Part shown: positions 1,135-57,338 of the stretch, piece after piece
Numbering within the stretch: position 1 is the first letter of the stretch
Layout: each line of letters begins with the position of its first letter
Notes under the pieces: generated by a model
Database searches by the model: none
Told to the model about the DNA's origin: nothing
What the model saw: only the letters and a program-made list of their open reading frames with translations
Translations under genes and position numbers: made by a program
NCBI GenBank assembly: GCA_000004695.1
Contig: CM000150.2
Location: 2,016,001 to 2,080,000, forward strand
Direction of reading: 5' to 3'
Origin: Dictyostelium discoideum
Taxonomy: Eukaryota
DNA length: 64,000 nucleotides

Positions 1135-1584
1135 TCAAAAAAAATTCCCTACAACACACCTATCTATGGGTGGTATGACTTTTAATATGGTTACTTCAGC
1201 ATTTTCGAAATTAATATTTGAAATCATTTGATAGTAAAACGTTAGACAATTTGAATAGGTTTGATTGTTTATGATTTTCAAAACCGATGTATCAAAGTAA
1301 ACAATATCATACTCTGACGATGACAAAGCATTACATAAATCATTAGCTTCCACAGCCAATAGGTATTTTTGTAAAGTTTCAAACTGATCATTAGCAAATG
1401 GAAACTTTGAGTACATATCCTTTAGGAGAGCATTAGCTACAGTGGAATCAGTAGGTTCACCGAAAAATCCAACCTTTTGACCAATAAGGATTTCTTTTCT
1501 TTCATATGACTCTTTAATTCTATTTAAAATTGTTGTTTTTCCAGAACCAATTGGACCTGTAGTAATTTTAATCTTAGGAGGCAT
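1135..1584 (-). CDS. P-loop nucleoside/nucleotide-kinase-like protein (deoxynucleoside-kinase-like), 149 aa, possibly a truncated remnant
   Basis: A real ATG begins 'MPPKIKITTGPIGSGKTT' (Walker A). Further in there are 'GFFGEPTDS' (E-P) and 'YFDTSV' (ERS-like) motifs in the order seen in dNK/TK-type kinases. Codon usage is not typical of the host (CCT, GCT, TCG, CTA, ACG, GGG). Confidence 0.45.
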   Translation of the reverse strand: MPPKIKITTGPIGSGKTTILNRIKESYERKEILIGQKVGFFGEPTDSTVANALLKDMYSKFPFANDQFETLQKYLLAVEANDLCNALSSSEYDIVYFDTSVLKIINNQTYSNCLTFYYQMISNINFENAEVTILKVIPPIDRCVVGNFF

Positions 1585-1891
1585 TTTTTTTTTTCTTTTT
1601 TATTTATTTTTAGATATTATCTTGTTTTATTTTTTTTAAAAAAAAATAATAATTTATATCCATTTTTAAAAAAAACAAAAAAGCTTCCATGGTGTTCTTT
1701 TTTTTAAAAAAAGAATTCTATTAAAGAATAGTTATAAAAATAAAAAAAAAAAAAAAATAAGGGAAGAAAAAAAAAAAATCTTGGTTTTGATTTTCAAAAA
1801 AAAAAAAAAAAAAAAAAAAAAATTAAAAATTATAAAAAAAAAAAAAAAAAATATCTTCTTTTTTTTTAAAAAAAAAAAATAAAGAATAAAA

Positions 1892-2811
1892 ATGAACATT
1901 CATGTAAAATCAGTTTGTATTGATAATGGCATCATAATTTTTAAAAAACAAGATCAGGCATTTAATTATATGAATAGTGTCAGCTCTATTGAAAAATATT
2001 TTATATTTTCATATGAATTTGGCGATAAAGGTCAACGTGCTTTTTTAGTATCTCCAAGTATTGAAAAACTCTTCAAATGTATAATGAATACACCATTGAA
2101 TCTTCGTCATTATTATGAATTGATTCCACAATTTGAAAATTGTAATTTGTATTTAGATATTGATTTTAAGTTATCACCCGAGAAAGCAGAAGAAAATAAA
2201 AGAAACAAACAACTTTATAAAAACAATCTTATCGATAGAATTATAATCGACGAAGTAAAACCCATCCAAAGAAAACACATCCACAGGTCTCTGATGAAAT
2301 CGATAGCATTGAACCATTATTGCTCTTCTCCTATCAATACGATAAATATTCTTTACATTTACATTGGCCATTGAAAACCTTCCATTGGAAAGACAATGAA
2401 CATCTTGGAGAATGGGTAAAACAATTTGTTATTGAAAGATCCATCTATATACCAGAGCTCAACTATATCGATACGTCAGTTTATTCAAAATTCAGAAATT
2501 TTCGTCTAATGGGAAATAAAAAATTCAGTAAGAGTATTGAAACAATACTTAGAACAACATCTAAAGATAAAACCCTTGAAACCTTTGAAAAAACTATAAT
2601 AACATCATCGAATTTTCAAAAACAAAACGATACTGGTATCGATGAGAAAATCCTTTCATCTAATGGTTTCGAATCTTTAAAGAATACTGGTAGATCAACA
2701 GTTGATGTTAAGAGGAATCAACACCAACGAATTTCTTGTAATGATTTGATTTCATTGGAAGGTATGGGTCTCTCATTGGACGAATGTAATGATATTATAT
2801 TTTGTTTTTAA
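1892..2811 (+). pseudogene. archaeo-eukaryotic primase (AEP)-like gene split by a frameshift into two overlapping ORFs
   Basis: ORF 1892-2374 carries motif I 'NLYLDIDFK' (DxD). ORF 2320-2811, in a different frame, carries motif II-like 'YSLHLHWPL' (HxH) and motif III-like 'IDTSVYSKFRNFRLMGNKKFSK' (D..R..R..G..K). The frames overlap at 2239-2374, which is too short for an intron, so this is a frameshift. Confidence 0.35.
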
Positions 2812-3078
2812 TTTTTATAGAAGATTTTTTCAATTAAAATTCTATAAAAATAAAAAACAAAATAAAAAAAATAAATTTTATAAAAAAAAAAAAATGTTTG
2901 AAAATATAAAATCATTAATCTTCTCAGCAGTTTCTTTATTATTCTCTTTTTTGTATTATCATAGTGATTCAATTATATCTTTATTCACTCAAAATCTTGG
3001 TGAGGCAGTTTTGGAAACAATAGACGAAGTAATTCATAAACCCCAAACCTCATTACAACAAGAATCATTAAAATTACA

Positions 3079-3411
3079 ATGTACATGCAAACCATTATAA
3101 AACAATCGAAAAGTATCGATGAAGATTTGGTACAAGGAACTAAAAAATGGGAAGAAGTAAGAGAGAAGTATTCTTTTACTGGAAGTAGATTAGCTGCTGC
3201 CATTGGAATTGATCCATACACTTCACAACATGATTTATTTCATTTTTTATATACAATTGTTGGAATGTGCATTCATGATAAATATAATTTTGAAGATTTG
3301 TTCCAAAGAGTAGGCAGTGGCACATCATTTGCTGTTATCGAAGAATTCATGAGGGGTGATCTTTTTCCTGATATCAAAAATGGATGTAGTGAAGAATGTA
3401 AAAAAAAATGA
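3079..3411 (+). pseudogene. YqaJ/lambda-exonuclease-like nuclease, truncated N-terminal fragment
   Basis: 'QGTKKWEEVREKYSFTGSRLAAAIGIDPYTSQHDL' is about 95% identical to the N-terminus of the complete YqaJ-like ORF at 53694-54407. Nucleotide homology spans 3038-3237 only, after which the ORF diverges into unrelated sequence. Confidence 0.5.
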
Positions 3412-3849
3412 TACAATATACACAGGCCGTGTTTAAAAACTATATGAACTCTGTATGTTGGTACATAATGATGTTAATATACCAAAAAAGTTTGATGATA
3501 ATGGGCCCTCGTGCTTTTCAAATTATATCCATTCTTTGGTAGGTGGTTTCAAGGAAGAAAACTCTTGTTATTTCAACTATACGCCACGTCTCGAAAATAA
3601 TAGTAGTAAATTTCCAGATTATCCAAAAGAAAATTCTCAATAAAAATAAAAAGTTTATAATTTTTTTATTTATTTTGTTAATTTTTGTTTTTATTTTAAA
3701 TAAATAAATAATTTTAATAAATAATAATTAAAAAAAAAAAAATCATTGAAATCTAGTTGTAATTTTTATTTTATTTTATTTTTTTCTTTAAATTATTTTT
3801 CTTTAATCATTTTTATTTTGAATAATGATCTGAGACTACACGGGAAAAA

Positions 3850-5862: not shown

Positions 5863-7300
5863 TTATAGAAAGTACTGAGTGAATTTATTGTATTTTCTGA
5901 GATGTTTAGGAAGTTCTATTGCGGGTGTTGATGATGATTTGTGACACCCCTTGTCCTGTTTTATCAATTGGTGCGTGGTGTGTTATTTTGTTTTTATATT
6001 GTTGATTTATTGAGTAAATTTTATTTGTTTTTATATTTGTTTCAGTTAGAAGTGCTGCGTCCAGCTTGTTGTTGTCTAAAACGGTGTTTATTATGCTGGC
6101 AGATTGGATGGTGTTGGATCCTTGGACGTTCCAAACACCTATTCTTATTGTGTTTTTCTTTATAGTTTTATTTGGGGTAGATTTTTATCTACCTTTTGAA
6201 GTTTCTGGTTTATTTTGTCTTCTAACTGATCTTTACTTTGTTCGTTGTGTTGTTGGTCTTGTGTGTTTGTGGGGTTTTTTGATTTATTGATTTGTTTTAG
6301 AATTTCCTTGTTGAAGTTGTCTATATCTTCATCCATTTTTGTTTTTATGCTTTTTTGTCCATATTCACCCAATTTTGGTTTGACTGGTGTTTTGTTGGTC
6401 TTGTTTGTTTTGTCTTGTTGTTTCTTTTTTGGTGTGTTTAACAATTTACTTGGTGAATCGATAATTTTCGATGGTGTACCATAGGTTGGGCTGAAACTCA
6501 TGATATGTTTTATTGGAGAGGAGAAGAACCATTGATTTGAAGGGATTGAAAGTGGGAATTCTATTTTTCTTATTGCATCAGTGTTTGGGCTGGTGAAGTC
6601 GAAGATATCATTTGCCTCTCTAAGTTTTTCTTCCGTTGTTAGTCCCTTTGTTTCGCCGTGTTGTTTTATTGGTGTATTGTATGGAGATGGTGGTTCGATA
6701 GGTTTTTCTGATTTTGTTTTAATTTCTTGATTGTTTATCGATTGTGTATTGATCTCATTCTCTATTCTTGTTAGTTCATCTACGTTTTCTAGTGATGCTT
6801 CTATTACCTTTTGAGCTGTATCATCTAGGGCCATAAATGTTTTATCATTAGATGAGGATGTGATTGGTGGGATAATGATTGTTCTTTTTCCTTGTTTTGG
6901 TATTTGTTCTGATGTAGATTGTGGTTGTTGTTCATCTGATTGTTTTTTATTTTTGTTTTCTTCTTGATTTTCTGGTAATGAGGTTTGATCTCTCCATCCT
7001 TTGTTGGAGTGTCCAATTAATGTTAGATTGTCTAGTTCAATGATAGTGTCAAATTCTTCTACGACTCTTTTCACTGTTTTGATAATTAGAGTTTCGCCTT
7101 TAATTTCTGATTTAATTAGTTTACATCCTTCATTTTCTATTACCCATTCTATTTCTGTGAGTGATTTATACCAATCAAAATCTGTATACATATTTTTTGG
7201 TCTTATAGTGGTTATAAATTGTCCTTTTAATTCTGCATCAAACATATTTACAAAATAGATTACTGTTTTCAATTGGAAATTTTTTTGCATATAATATTTT
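5480..7300 (-). mobile_element. TRE5-like non-LTR retrotransposon, internally deleted, head-to-head with tRNA-Arg
   Basis: On the minus strand there is a 376-aa ORF1 (7290-6160) followed by the start of an ORF2 AP-endonuclease ('IGVWNVQGSNTIQSASIINTVLDNNKLDAALLTETN', 6150-6040). It is then truncated, has an internal A-tract (5860-5810), and ends in a 3' module plus oligo(A) at 5550-5480. That 3' module matches the 3' end of the element at 49140-49205. Confidence 0.5.
6160..7290 (-). CDS. retrotransposon ORF1 protein (TRE5-like)
   Basis: 376-aa ORF from an ATG 21 bp from the tRNA-Arg 5' end, followed immediately by the APE-domain start of ORF2. Confidence 0.45.
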   Translation of the reverse strand: MQKNFQLKTVIYFVNMFDAELKGQFITTIRPKNMYTDFDWYKSLTEIEWVIENEGCKLIKSEIKGETLIIKTVKRVVEEFDTIIELDNLTLIGHSNKGWRDQTSLPENQEENKNKKQSDEQQPQSTSEQIPKQGKRTIIIPPITSSSNDKTFMALDDTAQKVIEASLENVDELTRIENEINTQSINNQEIKTKSEKPIEPPSPYNTPIKQHGETKGLTTEEKLREANDIFDFTSPNTDAIRKIEFPLSIPSNQWFFSSPIKHIMSFSPTYGTPSKIIDSPSKLLNTPKKKQQDKTNKTNKTPVKPKLGEYGQKSIKTKMDEDIDNFNKEILKQINKSKNPTNTQDQQHNEQSKDQLEDKINQKLQKVDKNLPQIKL

Positions 7301-7311
7301 ATATCATCAAA

Positions 7312-7385
7312 GGGACTATAGTTTAGTTGGATATAACGACCGGCTACGAACCGGTAGGTCTCAGGTTCGACCCCTGATGGTCTCG
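7312..7385 (+). tRNA. tRNA-Arg (anticodon ACG)
   Basis: Manual cloverleaf: acceptor GGGACTA/TGGTCTC with two G-U pairs, anticodon stem ACCGG/CCGGT with loop CTACGAA, T-arm TCAGG-TTCGACC-CCTGA, discriminator G. The architecture closely matches metazoan tRNA-Arg-ACG. Confidence 0.85.
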
Positions 7386-7543: not shown

Positions 7544-8644
7544 TTAGTTTTCGAATCTAACCTTTTCACATTTATATGATTTATTACATAATTGATCGAA
7601 ACCACAATTAAAACTATGAGTACATTTACCATATTCACAACGGTCAGTTGTACAATCCAAATTATCGGAACAGTCTTTATTTGAATAACATGAGGAAAGA
7701 CCATCACAAGTTGGATCAGGTTTATAATGACAGCCATATTCATTATCACAAAAGTCCTGAGTACATGGATTACCATCATCACAACTAACATTGTTATGTA
7801 TACAACCCAAATCATTATCACATACATCAGCGGTACATAAATTTCCATCTGAACAATCTTTATAACTTTGGATACATTTTAGGGTTTGTTTATCACAAAC
7901 TGCATTTGTACATTTATTGGTGTTACAACCTTTTAGACATTTCTGATATTCAGTAGTGTTTTCACAATTCATCCATTCATTAACAATATTAATACAAATT
8001 CCATAATAGGGTGAATAAAAATCAGTGGTACAAGGATTATTATCGGAACAATTGACACAAAATCCACGTTCGTCACAAATCTCCTCTGGTTTACATTTGG
8101 GTGTAATTTTACATTCACCAGTCTCTTCATTGCATGATGCAATACTACAACGATCACCACTAATACATGTTGGTGTATAAATACATTGACCAGTGTTTAC
8201 ATCACACAATGCTTGTTCACATAAAGTTCTTGCATGACATCTTGGTGTAACCGTACAATTTCCACCCTGTCTTCTATTACATGTTACAGTTTCACATAAA
8301 TCTTTTGCTTGACATTTTTGTAAATGTTCACATCTTAATATTTTAAATCTATCAATTGTACATGGATCACCATCATCACATAATCCTTCTATTTCACCTA
8401 AATAATAATAAATATATATATATTTTTTTTTTATTTTTAAAAAAAATTAATTAATATTTTTTTAAAATTACAAAAATCATTTTATAAAATTATAAATAAT
8501 AAAATAATAAAATAATAAAAAAAAAAAAAAAAAAAAAATGTTGATTTTTATTATTATTTTTTTTTAATATATTGGAAATAAATATTTACAATTAACAAAT
8601 ACTAAAAATATTGTAATAAATAAAAGTAAATATTTTATTTTCAT
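7544..8644 (-). CDS. secreted cysteine-rich protein with Dictyostelium-type (CTDC/EcmA-like) Cys repeats
   Basis: Model join(8644..8590,8397..7544). Exon 1 encodes the signal peptide MKIKYLLLFITIFLVFVN plus 1 nt. It has a GTAAAT donor and a 192-nt AT-rich intron with acceptor ..tattag. The phase-1 junction rebuilds TGT (Cys). Exon 2 carries repeated 'D(G/N)NPCTxDxC' motifs and 50 or more cysteines. The ORF track shows only the 221 aa downstream of an internal start. Confidence 0.55.
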
Positions 8645-16964: not shown

Positions 16965-18502
<1,538 letters not shown>

Positions 18503-47442: not shown

Positions 47443-48546
47443 TATAAATAAACTATTGTAGTATACAATTAGTATGTTATTTTTATTTATTTATTTTAGG
47501 TTTTTTAGTTTTTGTGAATTTAAAATAGTATGTTATTTTAGATTAGGTAATTAATAATTAATTGGTGGTGTAATTGTTGGAATTGGTTCATTAGTGTTTA
47601 TGCTCCATTCTTTTTTAAATTTTTTGATGGTTTCGGACCATTGGGTTTCTTTTTGAGTTTTTGTGAGGTTGTTTTTAATTGAGTATTGGTTAAAGTTTGA
47701 TAAAGTTCTTGAATATTCCAATCTTATTAGCTTGTGCCATTTTGATTTTAATATATCATAATCTAGTGTTGTGTTGTTTATTTGGTTGTTCCAATTATCA
47801 ATTGATTGAGTTATATTGATGTCAAATAATGATTTGCATAACCATATCCATATTTGGTGAATAACTAATGAGATTATGTTCCAATATGCATGTGTTCTGA
47901 CTAGATCAAGATTTGTGTTTATATAATTCCAGTTGGACCTGTATTTTTTATATTGTGCGTTTTCTGCAAAATGAAAATTAATATTGATAGTTGGATCTGG
48001 TTTAAATGCTTTGTTGTTTGTTTGTGGTTTATAGATGAGTGTGTATAATTTTGTTGTTTGGTTTTTTGTTAGTGACCAGTTTTTGTTTCCATTGCAATTT
48101 TTATATATAAAATATTTTAATTTGTCGTGGTTTATGAAGTTGATTGTGTGCTGACAATTGAAAAACAAATGACCATAGGGATCATTTTTCATTTCATTGT
48201 TGCAAATGGGGCAAACTTTGTTGTGTAGATGATTAATCGGAAGACATCTAGCATGGAATCTTTGCATTGTATCACGGCCTTTTGGATCTTTTAATTTTTG
48301 AATATTGACAAAAAGTTGGTCGTATGTGTATTTCCATAATAGTTGTATTGATTGTTGGTGCGAAGTAAGAAGTAGATCTGAATATTTCTTGCCAATATAG
48401 TCTTTTGATTTGCATTGGTGATTGTTTAGTATTGTCGAGTAGATTTCTTTGAGTGTTGGTGGTAGTGGAATATTATTTGTGTTTAATGTTTGAGAGGGTT
48501 GGTTTTTTGTTAATATTGGTTGTAGGATTTGAACTTTATCTTTTAG
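47443..48546 (-). mobile_element. TRE3-like non-LTR retrotransposon, 5'-truncated copy, downstream of tRNA-Val(AAC)
   Basis: An open frame covers 48540-47551 and the ORF track reports the part from the first ATG (47551-48267, 238 aa). It is the C-terminus of an ORF2 ('..CPICNNEM..H..C' zinc-finger, 'THAYWNIISLVIHQIWIWLCK'). It is more than 95% identical to 55718-56845. The 3' UTR ends '..caatagtttatttatatc' plus an oligo(A) tail, seen as plus-strand T25 at 47418-47442. The truncated 5' end lies about 65 bp downstream of the tRNA 3' end, in the same orientation. Confidence 0.6.
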
Positions 48547-48610
48547 CTTTTTATGTTATCACATCCTGGAATCGATCATGCGATCCTTATTTCTCAAACC
48601 TAAAAATGAA

Positions 48611-48684
48611 TATTCAGAGCGGGAATCGAACCCACGACCTAATCCGTGTTAAGGATTCGTGATAACCGACTACACCATCCGAAC
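48611..48684 (-). tRNA. tRNA-Val (anticodon AAC)
   Basis: Manual fold of the minus strand: acceptor GTTCGGA/TCTGAAT with two G-U pairs, anticodon stem AATCC/GGATT with loop TTAACAC, T-arm GTGGG-TTCGATT-CCCGC, discriminator A. Confidence 0.7.
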
Positions 48685-51639: not shown

Positions 51640-52130
51640 TAAAATTACTTGGATCTTTTGAAAGAGTTAGTTTTAAGTCTTTTGCTTTTTATATATTCTG
51701 GGCTGGCTAGTTTGAACCATTAAGTAAGGTCGAGTATGAAAGCTTTTCAACTTTCGACGGTTCATCTCTGTACAATTGGTCGCAGACCCAAGTCCAGATG
51801 TTGTGAGATATTAGTGCGATTATGTTTCTATATGCGAAGGATTTAGATAGGTCATAGTTTACACATTTATACCCCCATTCGAAGTATTCTTTATGGAACA
51901 CACCTTGCAAACTTGGGATATGAAAAGTTACAGAACTCTAACTACCAAAAGGAGAGCCCTTTAGCTGATGTATTTAATGATGTCTATTCACTCCACACCA
52001 TCTAAGGTTTGCATTGGTTACCTTTTTGTGTAAAGAAGATGCACATTCATAAGGTTATTACGGAAAACAGCATCTATCCACTTCAATATGAACAAAATGC
52101 GAATGGTGAAGGTGATACCGATGATGATGA
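51640..52130 (-). mobile_element. fragment of a second non-LTR retrotransposon family (ORF2 C-terminus plus 3' region)
   Basis: Non-AT-rich block. The ORF 51707-51910 'FAYRNIIALISHNIWTWVCDQLY' is homologous to the 'HAYWNIISLVIHQIWIWLCKSLF' segment of the TRE3-like ORF2, at roughly 50% identity. Confidence 0.4.
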
Positions 52131-52279
52131 CGATGAGGAGATGTTACATGATGAAGAATATAATAATTTTTAATTTTTTAAAAAATTAAAAAGGGGAAAA
52201 AAAAAATAATAAAAAAAAAAAAATAAAACCTTAATTGGTTTTGTTTATGTAATAATCTTTTAAAAAATATATTCTATTA

Positions 52280-52627
52280 TTATTTTTCTTCTTCTTTTGT
52301 TGGAATATCTGTTCTTTTTCGAGAACCAGGAAAATTAAGATCCAAAATATTGACTGTAAAGAGATCTTGAATATTTTTGTCTTGAACTAAATAATCCTCA
52401 CCACTTTGGTAGTGTAATACATCTCTGAATTGAAAAAGAGGTAAGGAACCATCTTCGTTAACTTTGAGTGATTGATAAAGTATTGATGCAGTTTTATACA
52501 TTTCAAGACTTTCTACTACTTCCTTGATACATTCTGCTGTACAATCTTTCCCAAATTCAAATTCCAATAAGTTATCATATTGAAAAAGTTTTTCAGTAAA
52601 ATCTGGGTGGTGGTGGTTACGGTTCAT
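52280..52627 (-). CDS. hypothetical protein, 115 aa
   Basis: ORF with a real ATG (MNRNHHHPDFTEKLFQYDNLLEFEFGKDCTAECIKEVVESLEMYK..). Codon usage is mixed and there is no confident family. Confidence 0.3.
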   Translation of the reverse strand: MNRNHHHPDFTEKLFQYDNLLEFEFGKDCTAECIKEVVESLEMYKTASILYQSLKVNEDGSLPLFQFRDVLHYQSGEDYLVQDKNIQDLFTVNILDLNFPGSRKRTDIPTKEEEK

Positions 52628-53167
52628 TTTTTTTTTCTCTGTGTCAAAAATGAAAATTATTTGTGTGAATAAAAAATAAAAAAAAAAAAAAAAAATTTTA
52701 AAAAAAAAAAAAATAAATAAAAAAAATAATAAAATAATAACAATGACAACTTAATTTTTTGAGTGAGAAATTATAAATAAATAATAAATAAATTTGTAAA
52801 TTAAAAAAAAAAAATAATAAATAAAAAAATTATTTTTTAATTTTTACCTAATTTACACAAAAACATTAATGTTTTTCTCACCATTTTATCTTTGTATAAA
52901 TTTTTTTTATTTTTTTATTTTATTATATTATACTTCATATAAATAACTATCTCCAAATGAAATTTTTATTAAAAATTAATTTATTGATCTTTTTTTTTTG
53001 TGAATTCCTGTAACTCACATCACTATGTTGGTATTATCGATGACAATTCTATAACTCCAAACATGCAATGGTTTAACGATATTATGTTCATTAGAAGAAA
53101 CGCCAATGGTGCCTGGCCTAGAGTTAATTCTTTTAATTGAAACGGGGTATACTTTGTTTTCGGGAAT

Positions 53168-53746
53168 ATGGCTCCTCATGGATTGACCTTGCTGTATATA
53201 GGTAAAGCATCCCATCAAGATGGGATGGGTTTGTACCACAGAGGTTACTCAGATATAGTTGGTCGCCCAAGGTTTTGGGGGACTCCAAATGCAAGACCAC
53301 TAGAAATGGCAAATGCCCAAATTTTAATGTATTATAGAGGTTTTGATGGTCCAGTTGCTGGTCATGCTGAGTGGTTCCTTTCAGTATTTGGGTGCCCAGA
53401 AAATAGTTTCAACGAGGGTGGTTTAAAGGAATCTCAATTTTGTTATGGTGCAGGTCAATGGAATTTTTTCCATGCAACTGCTCCCGCAGTTAATGTTTGC
53501 CAATATATTATAAATCAAGATCCATCCCCTGGTCTTTTTTTTAGATATCCAAACTATCCATCTGCTCCAAGTATTATAAGAAGAATTGTTGATTGTGAAA
53601 CTGAACGATTACTCGCTGAAGGTCTTTCACTTCAAGTTCCTGGTCTTCAAAATCAAGTGTTAAATCTTCAAAATCAAGTGGAAAATCTTCAAAATGCAAA
53701 CCAACTATTTGCAAACCCCAAACTTCATTACAACAAGAATCATTAA
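53168..53746 (+). CDS. GC-richer ORF of unknown function, 192 aa, next to the YqaJ-like gene; weak support
   Basis: ORF MAPHGLTLLYIGKASHQDGMGLYHRGYSDIVGRPRFWGTPNARPLEMANAQILMYYRGFDGPVAGHAEWF... ending in a Q/N-rich coiled-coil-like tail. Non-host codon usage (GGG, CGC, CCC, CTG). A 39-codon open segment upstream (53021-53137) is separated by one stop codon. Confidence 0.3.
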   Translation: MAPHGLTLLYIGKASHQDGMGLYHRGYSDIVGRPRFWGTPNARPLEMANAQILMYYRGFDGPVAGHAEWFLSVFGCPENSFNEGGLKESQFCYGAGQWNFFHATAPAVNVCQYIINQDPSPGLFFRYPNYPSAPSIIRRIVDCETERLLAEGLSLQVPGLQNQVLNLQNQVENLQNANQLFANPKLHYNKNH

Positions 53747-54407
53747 AATTACAATGTACATGCAAACCATTATAAAACAATCGAAAAGTATCGATGAAGA
53801 TTTGGTACAAGGAACTAAAAAATGGGAAGAAGCAAGAGAGAAGTATTCTTTAACTGGAAGTAGATTAGCTGCTGCAATTGGAATTGATCCATACACTTCA
53901 CAACATGATTTAAAATTAATATTAGCGAAAAAGAAAACCCCATTCTTTAGTGACTACTGTAAAAAGGCAATGGAACATGGTAAACACCAAGAACCAATAG
54001 CAAGAGAATTTTATTTTAATGAATTGGAGACTTCAATTATCGAAAAGGGTATCTTTCCATTGCCAGGCGACAAAAGAATTGGATGTTCTCCTGATGGGGT
54101 AATTTACACAACAGTACCTGGTAAAGATGGAGTTTTACAGCGTGAAGGAGTTATTGAAATAAAATGTCCACTATCTACCACGAACTTCAGTGGCCTAAAG
54201 AATGGTAGAAAACCTGATGCCTTAGCTAATGCTCAGAAAATACCTCTAGATTACATTCCACAAATATTTGCAAACATGGCATGTACTGGGGCACAATGGT
54301 GTGATTATATATGTTGGGTTCCAGGTGAGGTATACTTTTGTAGAAGGGTATTCTTTGATACAAATGTATTCGTTAGCAAAATTATTTATAGATACACCTT
54401 TAAATGA
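53694..54407 (+). CDS. YqaJ/lambda-exonuclease-like PD-(D/E)XK nuclease, complete; about 216 aa if started at the second Met (53754)
   Basis: 'WEEAREKYSLTGSRLAAAIGIDPYTSQHDL', 'HGKHQEPIAREFY', 'GCSPDGVIY', 'GVIEIKCP' and 'IPLDYIPQIFANMACTGAQWCDYICW' match the YqaJ viral-recombination nuclease domain in order and spacing. Non-host codon usage. Confidence 0.6.
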   Translation: MQTNYLQTPNFITTRIIKITMYMQTIIKQSKSIDEDLVQGTKKWEEAREKYSLTGSRLAAAIGIDPYTSQHDLKLILAKKKTPFFSDYCKKAMEHGKHQEPIAREFYFNELETSIIEKGIFPLPGDKRIGCSPDGVIYTTVPGKDGVLQREGVIEIKCPLSTTNFSGLKNGRKPDALANAQKIPLDYIPQIFANMACTGAQWCDYICWVPGEVYFCRRVFFDTNVFVSKIIYRYTFK

Positions 54408-54544
54408 AATACCTTAAAGAATGAAAAAACATTAATAATAAATACATTACTCTTACAGAAACTTAAAGTTTTAAATCCACACCTAAATATTCATGTACGA
54501 ACTAAATTATCATATAGAAAAAAAGTTATAAAAAAAAATAATAA

Positions 54545-55560
54545 AAAATTTCGTTGATTGGTGGGGTGTTAATGTTGTTTTTTGGTGGTTGATTGTTTTT
54601 GTTAATATTTAGGGTTTGTGAGAGCATTTTTTATAGTTGTTGCCATATCAGAATTTTTTGCATGTTGAATTTTGTGTTTAGTGACACTACGTGTTGCAGC
54701 TTTGATATATCTTGTGATACCAGATGGTTGTTCGATCTTTTGGTCTACAATGTTGTGTGTGTGATCAATTAGATGATATGTTATAATGTAGCTTTTAAAC
54801 GCAACAGCATATGAGTATGTGACAGTAAATGATTCAATTGATGTACAACTGGTGAATTTGGTGAGGTTGTTTATAATTGCATCATTTGCAAGTTTGGGTG
54901 AGTACGTTTGAATGAATGTTTTAATGATTGCATAATCATTTGATGATATTTCGAATCTATAGTTGAGTTTGTCGATATTTAGTGCAAGTTGGTTTTGAAG
55001 GTTGATTATTGAAGTTAATTTATCAACGTTGCAATTTACGAAGGCAGTTGCACTAATTATTTTAAATGCTGATGGCGACAGTATATCTTCGAAGAGTTTG
55101 TGAATGTTTTTGTGAATTTGTTGGATTCTTGTGTCATCTTTAGAGGCTAATTCTTCACGGATGTATGGTTGATTAAAGTAACACTTAATGTTGATGGTGT
55201 TATTGTTTTTTTCTAAGAAGGAGAGTGGTCTTGTGATTGATGGAGGTGCAATGATATCTAATTGATTATCAAGTCCTTTGTTAAGTGAGAATTTGTTTGT
55301 TGGGGTTTGTTTTTTAGGTGTGCCGATTTTTGCACTTTTGTTTTTTGTTGTTCAGGTTGTGGAGGTATTATTTGTATTGGTTGTGTCGTTATCTGTATGA
55401 TTTGACTGTAATTCAGTTGAGTGATCATCAGCCATTGTTGAAAAGTATATAGGACGATAGCCCTTGCTTTACTGAGCAAAAATAGGGTAAAATTAAGAGG
55501 AATGAATGTGGTGAAGACATAGCAGTGATTTATTTTTATATGAATAAATTCTTGTTTATT
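54545..55560 (-). mobile_element. TRE3-like element, 5' portion (5' UTR plus ORF1 start), in tandem downstream of the TRE3 copy at 55608-57235
   Basis: Minus-strand 5' UTR, then ATG at 55440 ('MADDHSTELQSNHTDN..'), and a GT-rich (plus) or CA-rich (minus) ORF1 with frameshifts, truncated at about 54545. Confidence 0.4.
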
Positions 55561-55607
55561 TCTTTGCTTCGTTACTTTTTAAAAATTAATTGGTTTAAAT
55601 ATTAATT

Positions 55608-57235
55608 TGATATAAAAAAACTATTGTAGTATACAATTAGTATGTTTTTTTATTTATTTATTTTAGGTTTTTTAGTTTTTGTTAATTTAAAATGGTATGT
55701 TATTTTAGATTAGGTAATTAATAATTAATTGGTGGTGTAATTGTTGGAATTGGTTCATTTGTGTTTATGCTCCATTCTTTTTTAAATTTTTTGATGGTTT
55801 CGGACCATTGGGTTTCTTTTTGAGTTTTTGTGAGGTTGTTTTTAATTGAGTATTGGTTAAAGTTTGATAATGTTCTTGAATATTCCAATCTTATTAGCTT
55901 GTGCCATTTTGATTTTAATATATCATAATCTAGTGTTGTGTTGTTTATTTGGTTGTTCCAATTGTCAATTGATTGAGTTATATTGATGTCAAATAATGAT
56001 TTGCATAACCAGATCCATATTTGGTGAATAACTAATGAGATTATGTTCCAATATGCATGTGTTCTGACTAGATCAAGATTTGTGTTTATATAATTCCAGT
56101 TGGACCTGTATTTTTTATATTGTGCGTTTTCTGCAAAATGAAAATTAATATTGATAGTTGGATCTGGTTTAAATACTTTGTTGTTTGTTTGTGGTTTATA
56201 AATGTGTGTGTATAATTTTGTTGTTTGGTTTTTTGTTAGTGACCAGTTTTTGTTTCCATTGCAATTTTTATATATAAAATATTTTAATTTGTCGTGGTTT
56301 ATGAAGTTGATTGTGTGCTGACAATTGAAAAACAAATGACCATAGGGATCATTATTCATTTCATTGTTGCAAATGGGGCAAACTTTGTTGTGTAGATGAT
56401 TAATCGGAAGACATCTAGCATGGAATCTTTGCATTGTATCACGGCCTTTTGGATCTTTTAATTTTTGAATTTTGACAAAAAGTTGGTCGTATGTGTATTT
56501 CCATAATAGTTGTATTGATTGTTGGTGCGAAGTAAGAAGTAGATCTGAATATTTCTTGCCAATATAGTCTTTTGATTTACATTGGTGATTGTTGAGTATT
56601 GTCGAGTAGATTTCTTTGAGTGTTGGTGGTAGTGGAATATTATTTGTGGTTAATGTTTGAGAGGTTTGATTTTTTATTAATATTGGTTGTAGGATTTGAA
56701 CTTTATCTTTTAGATGTCCAATTTGAGTTGCATAGTTTTCCCATTCTTTTTTGATTTTTATAAGGTATGGAGAAGAGATTGATTTGTTGATGATTTGATC
56801 CATCCAACTTATCATGTATATTGAATTATTTGCAGATTTATGCATTTGTAAAAAACTGTATTTTTACAAATGCATAAATCTGTTGTATATCCAAATCTTT
56901 TGAGCAACTTGTCGTAATTGTATATTCCACATACCCCAACCACCTTCTTTTAATGGTTTTAATGATCTATCATAACACATCAAAGGTATTTTTGCACGTG
57001 AATGGATGGTTGATGTGTTATTTTCAATGGAATTGATATTGAGAGTTGGTGATTCAGAATTTGCGGGAGAATTCATAAACCATGAGATTAATTTATTAAT
57101 TTGAATTTCTTCATCTTTTGTAAATTCTTCAAGGTATGATAAATATGTTATTGGTGATAGTGAGTAGGTGTTTATGATGGTTGTTTTTGTTTTTAATGTT
57201 GTGCCACTAGTTTTCCATAGTACTATTATATATTA
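55608..57235 (-). mobile_element. TRE3-like non-LTR retrotransposon, 5'-truncated copy, downstream of tRNA-Val(UAC)
   Basis: ORF2 C-terminal 375-aa ORF (55718-56845), near-identical to 47551-48267 including the CCHC finger. It shares the 3' terminus 'gatataaa..aactattgtagtatacaattagtatg', with no long A-tail. The 5' end lies about 30-40 bp from the tRNA 3' end. Confidence 0.6.
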
Positions 57236-57264
57236 AAATTTATTTAACAATTCCAAAAAAAATA

Positions 57265-57338
57265 TGATCCGACCGAGGATCGAACTCGAGACCTGTTGCG
57301 TGTAAAGCAACCGTGATAACCGACTACACCATCCGACC
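57265..57338 (-). tRNA. tRNA-Val (anticodon UAC); one acceptor-stem mismatch
   Basis: Minus strand GGTCGGATGGTGTAGTCGGTTATCACGGTTGCTTTACACGCAACAGGTCTCGAGTTCGATCCTCGGTCGGATCA. Anticodon stem GTTGC/GCAAC with loop TTTACAC. The D-arm and 5' half are identical to tRNA-Val(AAC). There is a G5:G68 mispair in the acceptor stem. Confidence 0.6.

Follow-up and report, generated by a model that had tools for sequence, protein, structure and literature searches.

The stretch of the Dictyostelium discoideum genome considered here (64,000 nucleotides (nt) of contig CM000150.2, positions 2,016,001 to 2,080,000; hereafter the window) contains a block at 51850-54549 that is best explained as a decayed fragment of an endogenous double-stranded DNA (dsDNA) virus, a reading to which we assign a probability of about 0.8. 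The virus would be specific to dictyostelids, would carry a capsid-like gene of the Nucleocytoviricota type, and would have integrated many times. The most conspicuous part of the block is an open reading frame (ORF) of 237 amino acids (aa) at 53694-54407, which encodes a nuclease domain of the YqaJ (lambda-exonuclease) family. A first-pass annotation described this ORF as a complete gene, and suggested that it may mark a viral or mobile element. The suggestion is supported, since YqaJ is present in many copies and, in the fuller ones, is embedded in a conserved group of genes of viral type. The window copy, however, is incomplete, being a chimeric, truncated and frameshifted remnant. The evidence consists of the identity of the domain, the number and collinearity of the copies, their lesions, and their linkage to genes of viral type. 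Related loci and proteins are designated below by L and P numbers, respectively.

The YqaJ Gene of the Window

Residues 43-201 of the 237-aa ORF match the Pfam family YqaJ (PF09588) over the whole length of the profile (1-150/150), with E=9.2e-38 and a score of 130.3 bits against a cut-off of 22. The domain, which is of the PD-(D/E)XK type, is intact and occupies 53820-54296 of the plus strand. Its best solved homologue is a bacterial lambda-exonuclease-like protein (PDB 3syy, E=7e-13), and Mimivirus R354 (PDB 5yeu) is matched with E=1e-5. The residues of the catalytic Asp...Glu-x-Lys motif, ‘SPDG’ and ‘EIKCP’ in the window, are aligned with ‘SPDG’ and ‘EIKCP’ of 3syy and with ‘SPDG’ and ‘EIKFP’ of R354. 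The full domain with its ‘EIKCP’ block, as given in the first-pass annotation, is confirmed. Exact database look-ups with this ORF and four neighbouring ORFs gave no record.

The region around the ORF has a GC content of 36%, as compared to 13-25% across most of the window, and its codon usage had been described as foreign to the host. The GC content at third codon positions (GC3) is 0.22-0.26, versus 0.03-0.16 for most host ORFs in the window, but the host actin (0.20) and GH47 mannosidase (0.30) genes of the window reach the same range. The argument from codon usage is therefore weak, and we rejected it as decisive proof of foreign origin.

The sequence from 53713 to 54549 (plus strand) corresponds to the 3' ∼85% of the element’s YqaJ gene, without the gene’s own start and N-terminal extension. 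Its nucleotide identity is 92.5% to L002 (10145-10987), 88% to L003 (10145-10994), and 88% to L011 (10384-11233). In the DNA alignment with the fuller copies L002 and L003, the homology begins abruptly at 53713. The ORF takes its ATG (53694) and its first six codons from the upstream gene, in a different frame. Fuller copies of this YqaJ lineage have the N-terminus MFENIKSLIFSAVSLLF and the C-terminus FIDTPLNEIPLKNEKTLIINTLLLQKLKVLNPNLNILVRTK; within the window, the native N-terminus (MFENIKSLIF...) is found only at 2893, in a second island of related sequence.

At the 3' end, the alignment with L002 and L003 identifies two disabling lesions (54366-54414, plus strand), namely the loss of 14 bp after 54366 and of a single base pair near 54414. 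Together these deletions remove 15 bp, and the frame is therefore restored downstream, but the TGA that ends the ORF (54405-54407) sits in the 47-nt shifted stretch between the two deletions, so that the conserved C-terminal tail (54414 to ∼54540) is left untranslated. This tail is conserved in P0003, P0005, P0011 and L009. The description of the gene as complete thus fails at both ends, with the native start lost at 53712/53713 and the tail cut off by the two deletions and the TGA. Intact full-length relatives do exist (P0011, and L009 at 7641-8450), and the window copy is not one of them. The lesions of other copies are different; L003, for instance, has an in-frame TAG, and L002 has lost 7 bp. 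Most likely, the window copy is non-functional.

The Upstream Pseudogene and the Deletion Junction

Directly upstream, 52957-53712 (plus strand) is a pseudogene that represents the 5' half of a gene for a secreted protein found only in Dictyostelium (here called family X; 88% nucleotide identity to L003 4111-5178). It begins with a signal-peptide start (MKFLLKINLLIFFF) at 52957, and is disrupted by a frameshift in a run of T residues (52990-52999), by an in-frame TGA (53138-53140), and by the truncation at 53712, where it ends after ‘NLQNANQLF’, about halfway through the protein. Its longest open piece is the 192-aa ORF at 53168-53746, which extends upstream in frame across the TGA at 53138 to about 53015. 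This ORF was listed in the first-pass annotation as the neighbour of the nuclease gene. It exists and has no Pfam match, but it belongs to the surviving half of a different gene of the element and is not a partner gene.

Full-length members of family X (P0031-P0046; DDB_G0275481 in strain AX4) are 300-454 aa long. Besides a signal peptide and a conserved N-domain (GFDGPVAGHAEWWFLSVFGCP), they have coiled-coil repeats (NLQNQV), segments rich in Gly or in Cys/Pro, and a coiled coil at the C-terminus. A hidden Markov model search of 1.84 billion representative proteins with the N-domain gave nine real hits, all of Dictyostelium type, and therefore no function can be transferred to the family. The AlphaFold2 model is unusable (mean predicted local distance difference test (pLDDT) score of 39). 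Assignment of the upstream ORF to the GIY-YIG nucleases, based on ‘GVYFVF...LLYIGKA’, was considered and rejected, because the reconstructed 243-aa sequence has no Pfam match at E≤1 and the family is built of the signal peptide, coiled-coil, Gly-rich and Cys-rich regions just described. At L003 7710-8345 and at L007 19335-20711 / L011 57-1433 there are paralogues of family X in which the motif is clearer (‘GIYVVF...LAYIGKS’) and which have signal peptides of their own. The element seems to carry several genes for secreted or surface proteins from this one orphan family.

The two pseudogenes meet at a junction (53711-53716) that is defined by breaks in collinearity and by a three-way alignment. 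The counterpart of window 52014-53716 is L003 3403-5178, and that of window 53713-54545 is L003 10145-10994, so that ∼5 kb (L003 5178-10145) is missing from the window. In L003 the missing part comprises the rest of the family X gene, a small ORF, a paralogue of family X, the primase gene and the start of YqaJ. The tetranucleotide AAAC at 53712/53713 is common to both parent sequences, and such microhomology is typical of microhomology-mediated deletion. In assembly GCA_054883475.1, a 390-aa gene model containing YqaJ has been annotated over window 53063-54407. This chimeric model and the 237-aa ORF are both probably accidental frames over a pseudogene, and would not represent a working nuclease gene.

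Related Copies

At least four copies of YqaJ are present in the window’s genome, on three contigs (tags ACTFIT_004053, ACTFIT_000984 and ACTFIT_008165, and this locus). In the protein database, nearly every relative comes from Dictyostelium, with several copies per genome and many fragments; the multi-copy hosts include strains of D. discoideum (AX4 among them), D. cf. discoideum and D. dimigraforme, in which the copies lie on different contigs and mostly have different lesions. The flanks of L002, L003 and L011 have no similarity to those of the window. YqaJ is thus not a conserved single-copy host gene, and its profile match is strong; these were the two points on which the first-pass annotation had made its suggestion depend. 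Like the window copy, other decayed copies (P0002-P0010 and P0013) are publicly modelled as coding by means of invented short introns, such as one of 47 nt after ‘...LKLQ’. One AX4 copy bears the name ‘exonuclease, phage-type/RecB, C-terminal domain-containing protein’.

Several of the related loci are fuller than the island in the window. L001 (1-14587) covers 14.6 kb of a 58-kb D. cf. discoideum contig (JBTAPH010000006.1). It contains dense, intact, intron-less ORFs, including a gene resembling the late transcription factor VLTF3, a deoxynucleoside kinase (dNK), a PrimPol-like primase, a YqaJ protein 50% identical to that of the window, and several orphans, and it ends at a DIRS-like retroelement. 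L001 may represent a virus genome that is nearly complete and was integrated recently. L009 (1-12635) is a 12.6-kb Logan contig from sequencing run ERR13950607, with a uniform GC content of 33-37% (35% overall) and all ORFs open, in the order VLTF3-like, dNK, PrimPol-like, YqaJ, GRF zinc ribbon, and two conserved proteins of 169 and 260 aa. Its source may be an exogenous virus or another dictyostelid. L007 and L011 overlap by 1607 bp at 100% identity and together form an element of ∼35 kb in D. dimigraforme (JBTAPM010000037.1:1278388-1318894). This element contains fibre-like repeat ORFs, VLTF3-like and capsid-like genes, three tandem genes of a 126-aa family, family X paralogues and the kinase-primase-YqaJ block. 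Its gene order in L011 differs from that of L003, which is a D. cf. discoideum locus, and the difference looks like circular permutation or rearrangement. Four orphans (L001 3200-4303 and 10901-11956, L008 2779-4209, and L009 11501-12514) have, by eye, an H-x3-H...C-x2-C pattern that recalls the zinc-binding domain at the N-terminus of integrases, but the catalytic domain of an integrase was not detected.

Comparison of the YqaJ domain of the window copy with those of L002 and L003 gives ratios of nonsynonymous to synonymous substitution (dN/dS) of 0.09-0.22 and dS values of up to 0.43. Most of the divergence would therefore have arisen under purifying selection, in a functional gene. Such a pattern is expected of separate integrations from a replicating virus population, with recent and independent decay afterwards, and not of the duplication of dead sequence.

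The same low dN/dS, taken with the intact nuclease domain and catalytic motif, might instead suggest a working, domesticated host gene, in which either a secreted N-terminus is fused to YqaJ (390 aa) or the 237-aa nuclease stands alone; the annotators of GCA_054883475.1 did call the longer form. We regard this as quite improbable. The 390-aa model requires introns that skip the TGA and the changes of frame, and a signal peptide on a DNA exonuclease is biologically implausible. In addition, the copy lacks both the native start of the family and the conserved tail at the C-terminus, the disabling lesions of the other copies (for example the TAG of L003 and the 7-bp deletion of L002) are different ones, and L002, L003 and L011 do not share the flanks of the window.

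Virus-Type Genes Linked to YqaJ

The fuller copies place YqaJ in a recurrent block of genes. The order dNK (minus strand), primase, YqaJ is found in three divergent lineages (L001, L009 and L002/L011) and again in the second island of the window, and L003 retains primase and YqaJ. In L001 and L009, the VLTF3-like gene lies upstream of this block, 4-5 kb from YqaJ, and two conserved ORFs follow YqaJ in L001, L003 and L009. The archaeo-eukaryotic primase (AEP) of L009 matches human PrimPol with E=1.8e-8. L003 encodes, at 17321-18463, a D5-type helicase domain (DUF5906; E=5.8e-11, 43.5 bits, cut-off 27.6), as well as a GRF zinc-ribbon protein. The primase and the D5-type superfamily-3 helicase are both present, but as separate genes rather than in the fused D5 arrangement.

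Two further genes have borderline matches to families of the Nucleocytoviricota, also known as nucleocytoplasmic large DNA viruses (NCLDV). Five of the six members of the VLTF3-like family match Pox_VLTF3, and no other Pfam family, with a best E-value of 1.7e-5 and all scores below the 25-bit cut-off. The AlphaFold2 model of this protein is poor (pLDDT 45), and a Foldseek comparison with viral structures (BFVD) gave Medusavirus VLTF-3 as the top match, at a non-significant E=0.19. Adjoining the VLTF3-like gene in L008 and L007 is a gene for a 414-aa capsid-like protein, which in L008 (9491-10735, minus strand) matches the NCLDV family Capsid_N with E=4.2e-5 and 23.6 bits (cut-off 24), and whose C-terminus weakly resembles PBCV-1 MCPv3 (E=0.47). 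The overlap of L007 with L011 places the capsid-like and VLTF3-like genes ∼20 kb away from YqaJ, on a single chromosome contig of D. dimigraforme. For a conserved 168-aa protein, a profile search against the PDB gave no match, and the idea that it might be a penton comes from reading its sequence alone.

Capsid-like genes are also found in Polintons, and a large DNA transposon that carries YqaJ, whether non-viral or of the Polinton/Maverick type, could likewise be present in many dispersed copies with a gene order that varies between them, and near a DIRS-like element and tRNA-associated retroelements. We consider such a transposon, as opposed to a relative of the Nucleocytoviricota, unlikely. 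Pfam scans of L001, L003, L007, L008, L009 and L011 detect no transposase, no adenain-type protease, and neither the protein-primed B-family polymerase nor the rve integrase by which Polintons/Mavericks differ from the Dictyostelium loci. Furthermore, both of the borderline hallmark matches are to families specific to NCLDV (Capsid_N and Pox_VLTF3). The Phage_integrase and RVT match in L007 belongs to the neighbouring DIRS-like retroelement.

Recombination Partner and Phage Relatives

The first-pass annotation raised the matter of a single-strand annealing protein (SSAP) beside YqaJ. No Pfam family of this kind (RecT, ERF, Redbeta or Rad52-like) is found around either island of the window or in the six loci just listed, although a very divergent SSAP might be present among the orphan ORFs. 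The GRF zinc-ribbon neighbour might act as a partner that binds single-stranded DNA (ssDNA), a speculative assignment that comes from general knowledge of GRF fingers.

The nearest YqaJ relatives outside Dictyostelium (28-36% identity) are in three phage contigs (L004-L006), where ERF lies immediately upstream. Together with the fact that the best solved homologue is a bacterial exonuclease, this might suggest that YqaJ came directly from a bacteriophage or bacterium, by horizontal transfer or as contamination, and was then amplified in the host. This is very improbable, because the YqaJ genes of several species lie between host genes in AT-rich chromosomal contigs, and always within the same block of eukaryotic-virus type, without phage genes or ERF. 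Moreover, phage ancestry is the published view for the YqaJ genes of giant viruses themselves (PMC3493329), and a phage-like sequence is therefore no argument against a viral vector.

Comparison with Known Systems

A YqaJ-like recombinase is known in many Nucleocytoviricota, in which its exact role is uncertain (PMC3493329, PMC11253617). The Dictyostelium proteins share with this group (NCVOG1192, including R354) the Pfam family, the catalytic motif, the presence of replication genes and a VLTF3-like gene alongside, and the lack of an obvious adjacent SSAP (PMC3493329; PMC11253617; bioRxiv 10.64898/2026.08.29.747986). They differ in that they resemble R354 modestly (E=1e-5) and less than they do bacterial or phage members, and in having a lineage-specific conserved C-terminal tail and, in lineage A, also a hydrophobic N-terminal extension. 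In addition, the window copy is a pseudogene. With lambda exonuclease and LHK-Exo (3syy), the likeness extends from SPDG...EIKCP to a downstream ‘YIPQ...MACTG..WCD’ stretch, which is also aligned. Those enzymes work with RecT, ERF or Redbeta, whereas the Dictyostelium loci have no adjacent annealing gene and a eukaryotic virus-like context.

At the level of the whole element, the closest parallels are with viral sequences in other protists. Like the endogenous giant-virus-like elements of Acanthamoeba, algae and other protists, the Dictyostelium copies are dispersed and partly decayed blocks of virus genes, with somewhat shifted composition and independent lesions. Here, however, the host is a dictyostelid, the blocks are small (∼3-35 kb), and polymerase B, the A32 ATPase and RNA polymerase are not seen. 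Mriyaviruses/Yaravirus and the nucleus-dependent ‘Ariadnavirales’, which are small or reduced relatives of giant viruses, have a similarly small gene set, with capsid-like, VLTF3-like and PD-(D/E)XK/YqaJ proteins and reduced replication and transcription functions (PMC11253617; bioRxiv 10.64898/2026.08.29.747986). Instead of the HUH-helicase of mriyaviruses, the Dictyostelium element encodes a PrimPol-like primase and, separately, a D5-type helicase, and the likeness to these viruses is one of gene content.

Proposed Function and Decay

Based on the family, as represented by lambda Exo, LHK-Exo and NCVOG1192, the ancestral viral YqaJ would be a 5'-3' exonuclease on dsDNA that makes 3' ssDNA tails. 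Such tails would serve recombination-dependent replication, or the maturation and processing of the genome, and the nuclease would work with the PrimPol-like primase, the D5-type helicase and the deoxynucleoside kinase. After integration at the locus in the window, ∼5 kb would have been lost by microhomology-mediated deletion. The 5' half of family X would thereby have become joined to YqaJ, and frameshifts and stops would then have accumulated.

Several observations weigh against an origin from an endogenous virus of this type. The nuclease domain of the window copy is undamaged, and the low dN/dS is compatible also with selection acting in the host. The nearest YqaJ proteins outside Dictyostelium are phage proteins paired with ERF, and not giant-virus proteins. 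The capsid and VLTF3 calls each fall just under the curated Pfam thresholds, and Pfam detects no A32-type packaging ATPase, B-family DNA polymerase, protease or integrase in ∼100 kb of related partial loci, in which no RNA polymerase genes were seen either. Most ORFs of these loci are orphans, and a Pfam scan of ∼45 further ORFs gave mostly no match. Searches of IMG/VR with the VLTF3-like and capsid-like proteins, and of Joint Genome Institute (JGI) metagenomes with the VLTF3-like and 168-aa families, gave no relative, and we know of no exogenous virus of Dictyostelium.

A more specific possibility is that the fragment is the footprint of an undescribed, capsid-encoding dsDNA virus lineage of dictyostelids, made up of small relatives of giant viruses with a PrimPol/D5-helicase/YqaJ module, and perhaps recently or still active. 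Both L001, from D. cf. discoideum, and L009, from an unrelated sequencing run, are fully open and densely packed copies. We hold this form of the proposal tentatively, at slightly less than even odds.

Other Features of the Window

Virus-derived sequence within the window is confined to two islands. The left-most recognisable piece of the island at 51850-54549 (island 2) is a remnant at 51850-52107 (plus strand) of the element’s 152-aa ORF family, which in a tblastn search with the L003 ORF at 2972-3559 has 58% identity over 91 aa (E=1.5e-24). It is followed by an open 115-aa ORF of the element at 52280-52627 (minus strand), with 92% aa identity to L003 3678-4025 (minus strand) and, for the region, 88% nucleotide identity to L011 16380-16938. 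This ORF has no Pfam match and no known domain.

Island 1, at 1135-3643, is a second remnant of the same element, recognised by 95-97% nucleotide identity to L002 8176-10337 and by tblastn from L001 and L007/L008. It contains a dNK-like gene (1135-1584, minus strand), a frameshifted PrimPol-like primase gene (1892-2811), a 5' fragment of YqaJ with the true N-terminus (2893-3237), and fragments of the 126-aa family of multi-copy small proteins, with a ‘GCSEECKKK’ motif (3238-3643). The ORF at 3079-3408 gives a Pfam YqaJ match of its own (E=8e-5). The fragment includes the 200-bp duplication that was noticed in the first-pass annotation, and which is confirmed here: 53713-53912 equals 3038-3237 with 98% identity over 200 bp (E=5e-96). 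We considered whether the two islands are reciprocal products of one excision, and rejected this, because they overlap by these 200 bp and island 1 does not contain the missing half of family X.

At its right boundary, island 2 is adjoined by a retroelement-like remnant that lies outside the viral element (54550-57100, minus strand), for which the ORFs have only weak zinc-finger matches in Pfam. It includes a 375-aa retroelement-like ORF with a Cys/His motif (55718-56845, minus strand), and is located downstream of a tRNA-Val(TAC) gene (57265-57338). The remnant looks like a tRNA-associated non-long terminal repeat (non-LTR) retroelement, by analogy with the TRE retrotransposons of Dictyostelium, which target tRNA genes. 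All three tRNA genes of the window (Arg-ACG, Val-AAC and Val-TAC) adjoin an ORF of higher GC3 without a Pfam domain (regions 6160-7385, 47551-48684 and 55718-57338), a pattern that is expected of the tRNA-targeted retrotransposons of this genus.

Implications

Public coding annotations of this locus and its paralogues, including the 390-aa chimera, are probably pseudogene artefacts. The fragment itself seems ordinary, and endogenous viral fragments in protists and YqaJ in giant viruses are already known, so that the novelty seems to lie in the host and in the virus lineage. Full-text searches of open-access papers and preprints turned up neither a DNA virus nor an endogenous viral element described from Dictyostelium.

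D. discoideum is a major model for host-pathogen biology, and if the virus lineage proposed above is real, it would give the Dictyostelium model system its first known DNA virus. The remnants would then be traces of repeated invasions of the D. discoideum lineage by a DNA virus that encodes a capsid, and relatives with intact genes exist. The gene set, the diagnostic sequences and the candidate intact copies would provide a starting point toward a natural virus of a genetically tractable amoeba, and would permit study of how a viral YqaJ nuclease is used without a recognisable annealing partner.

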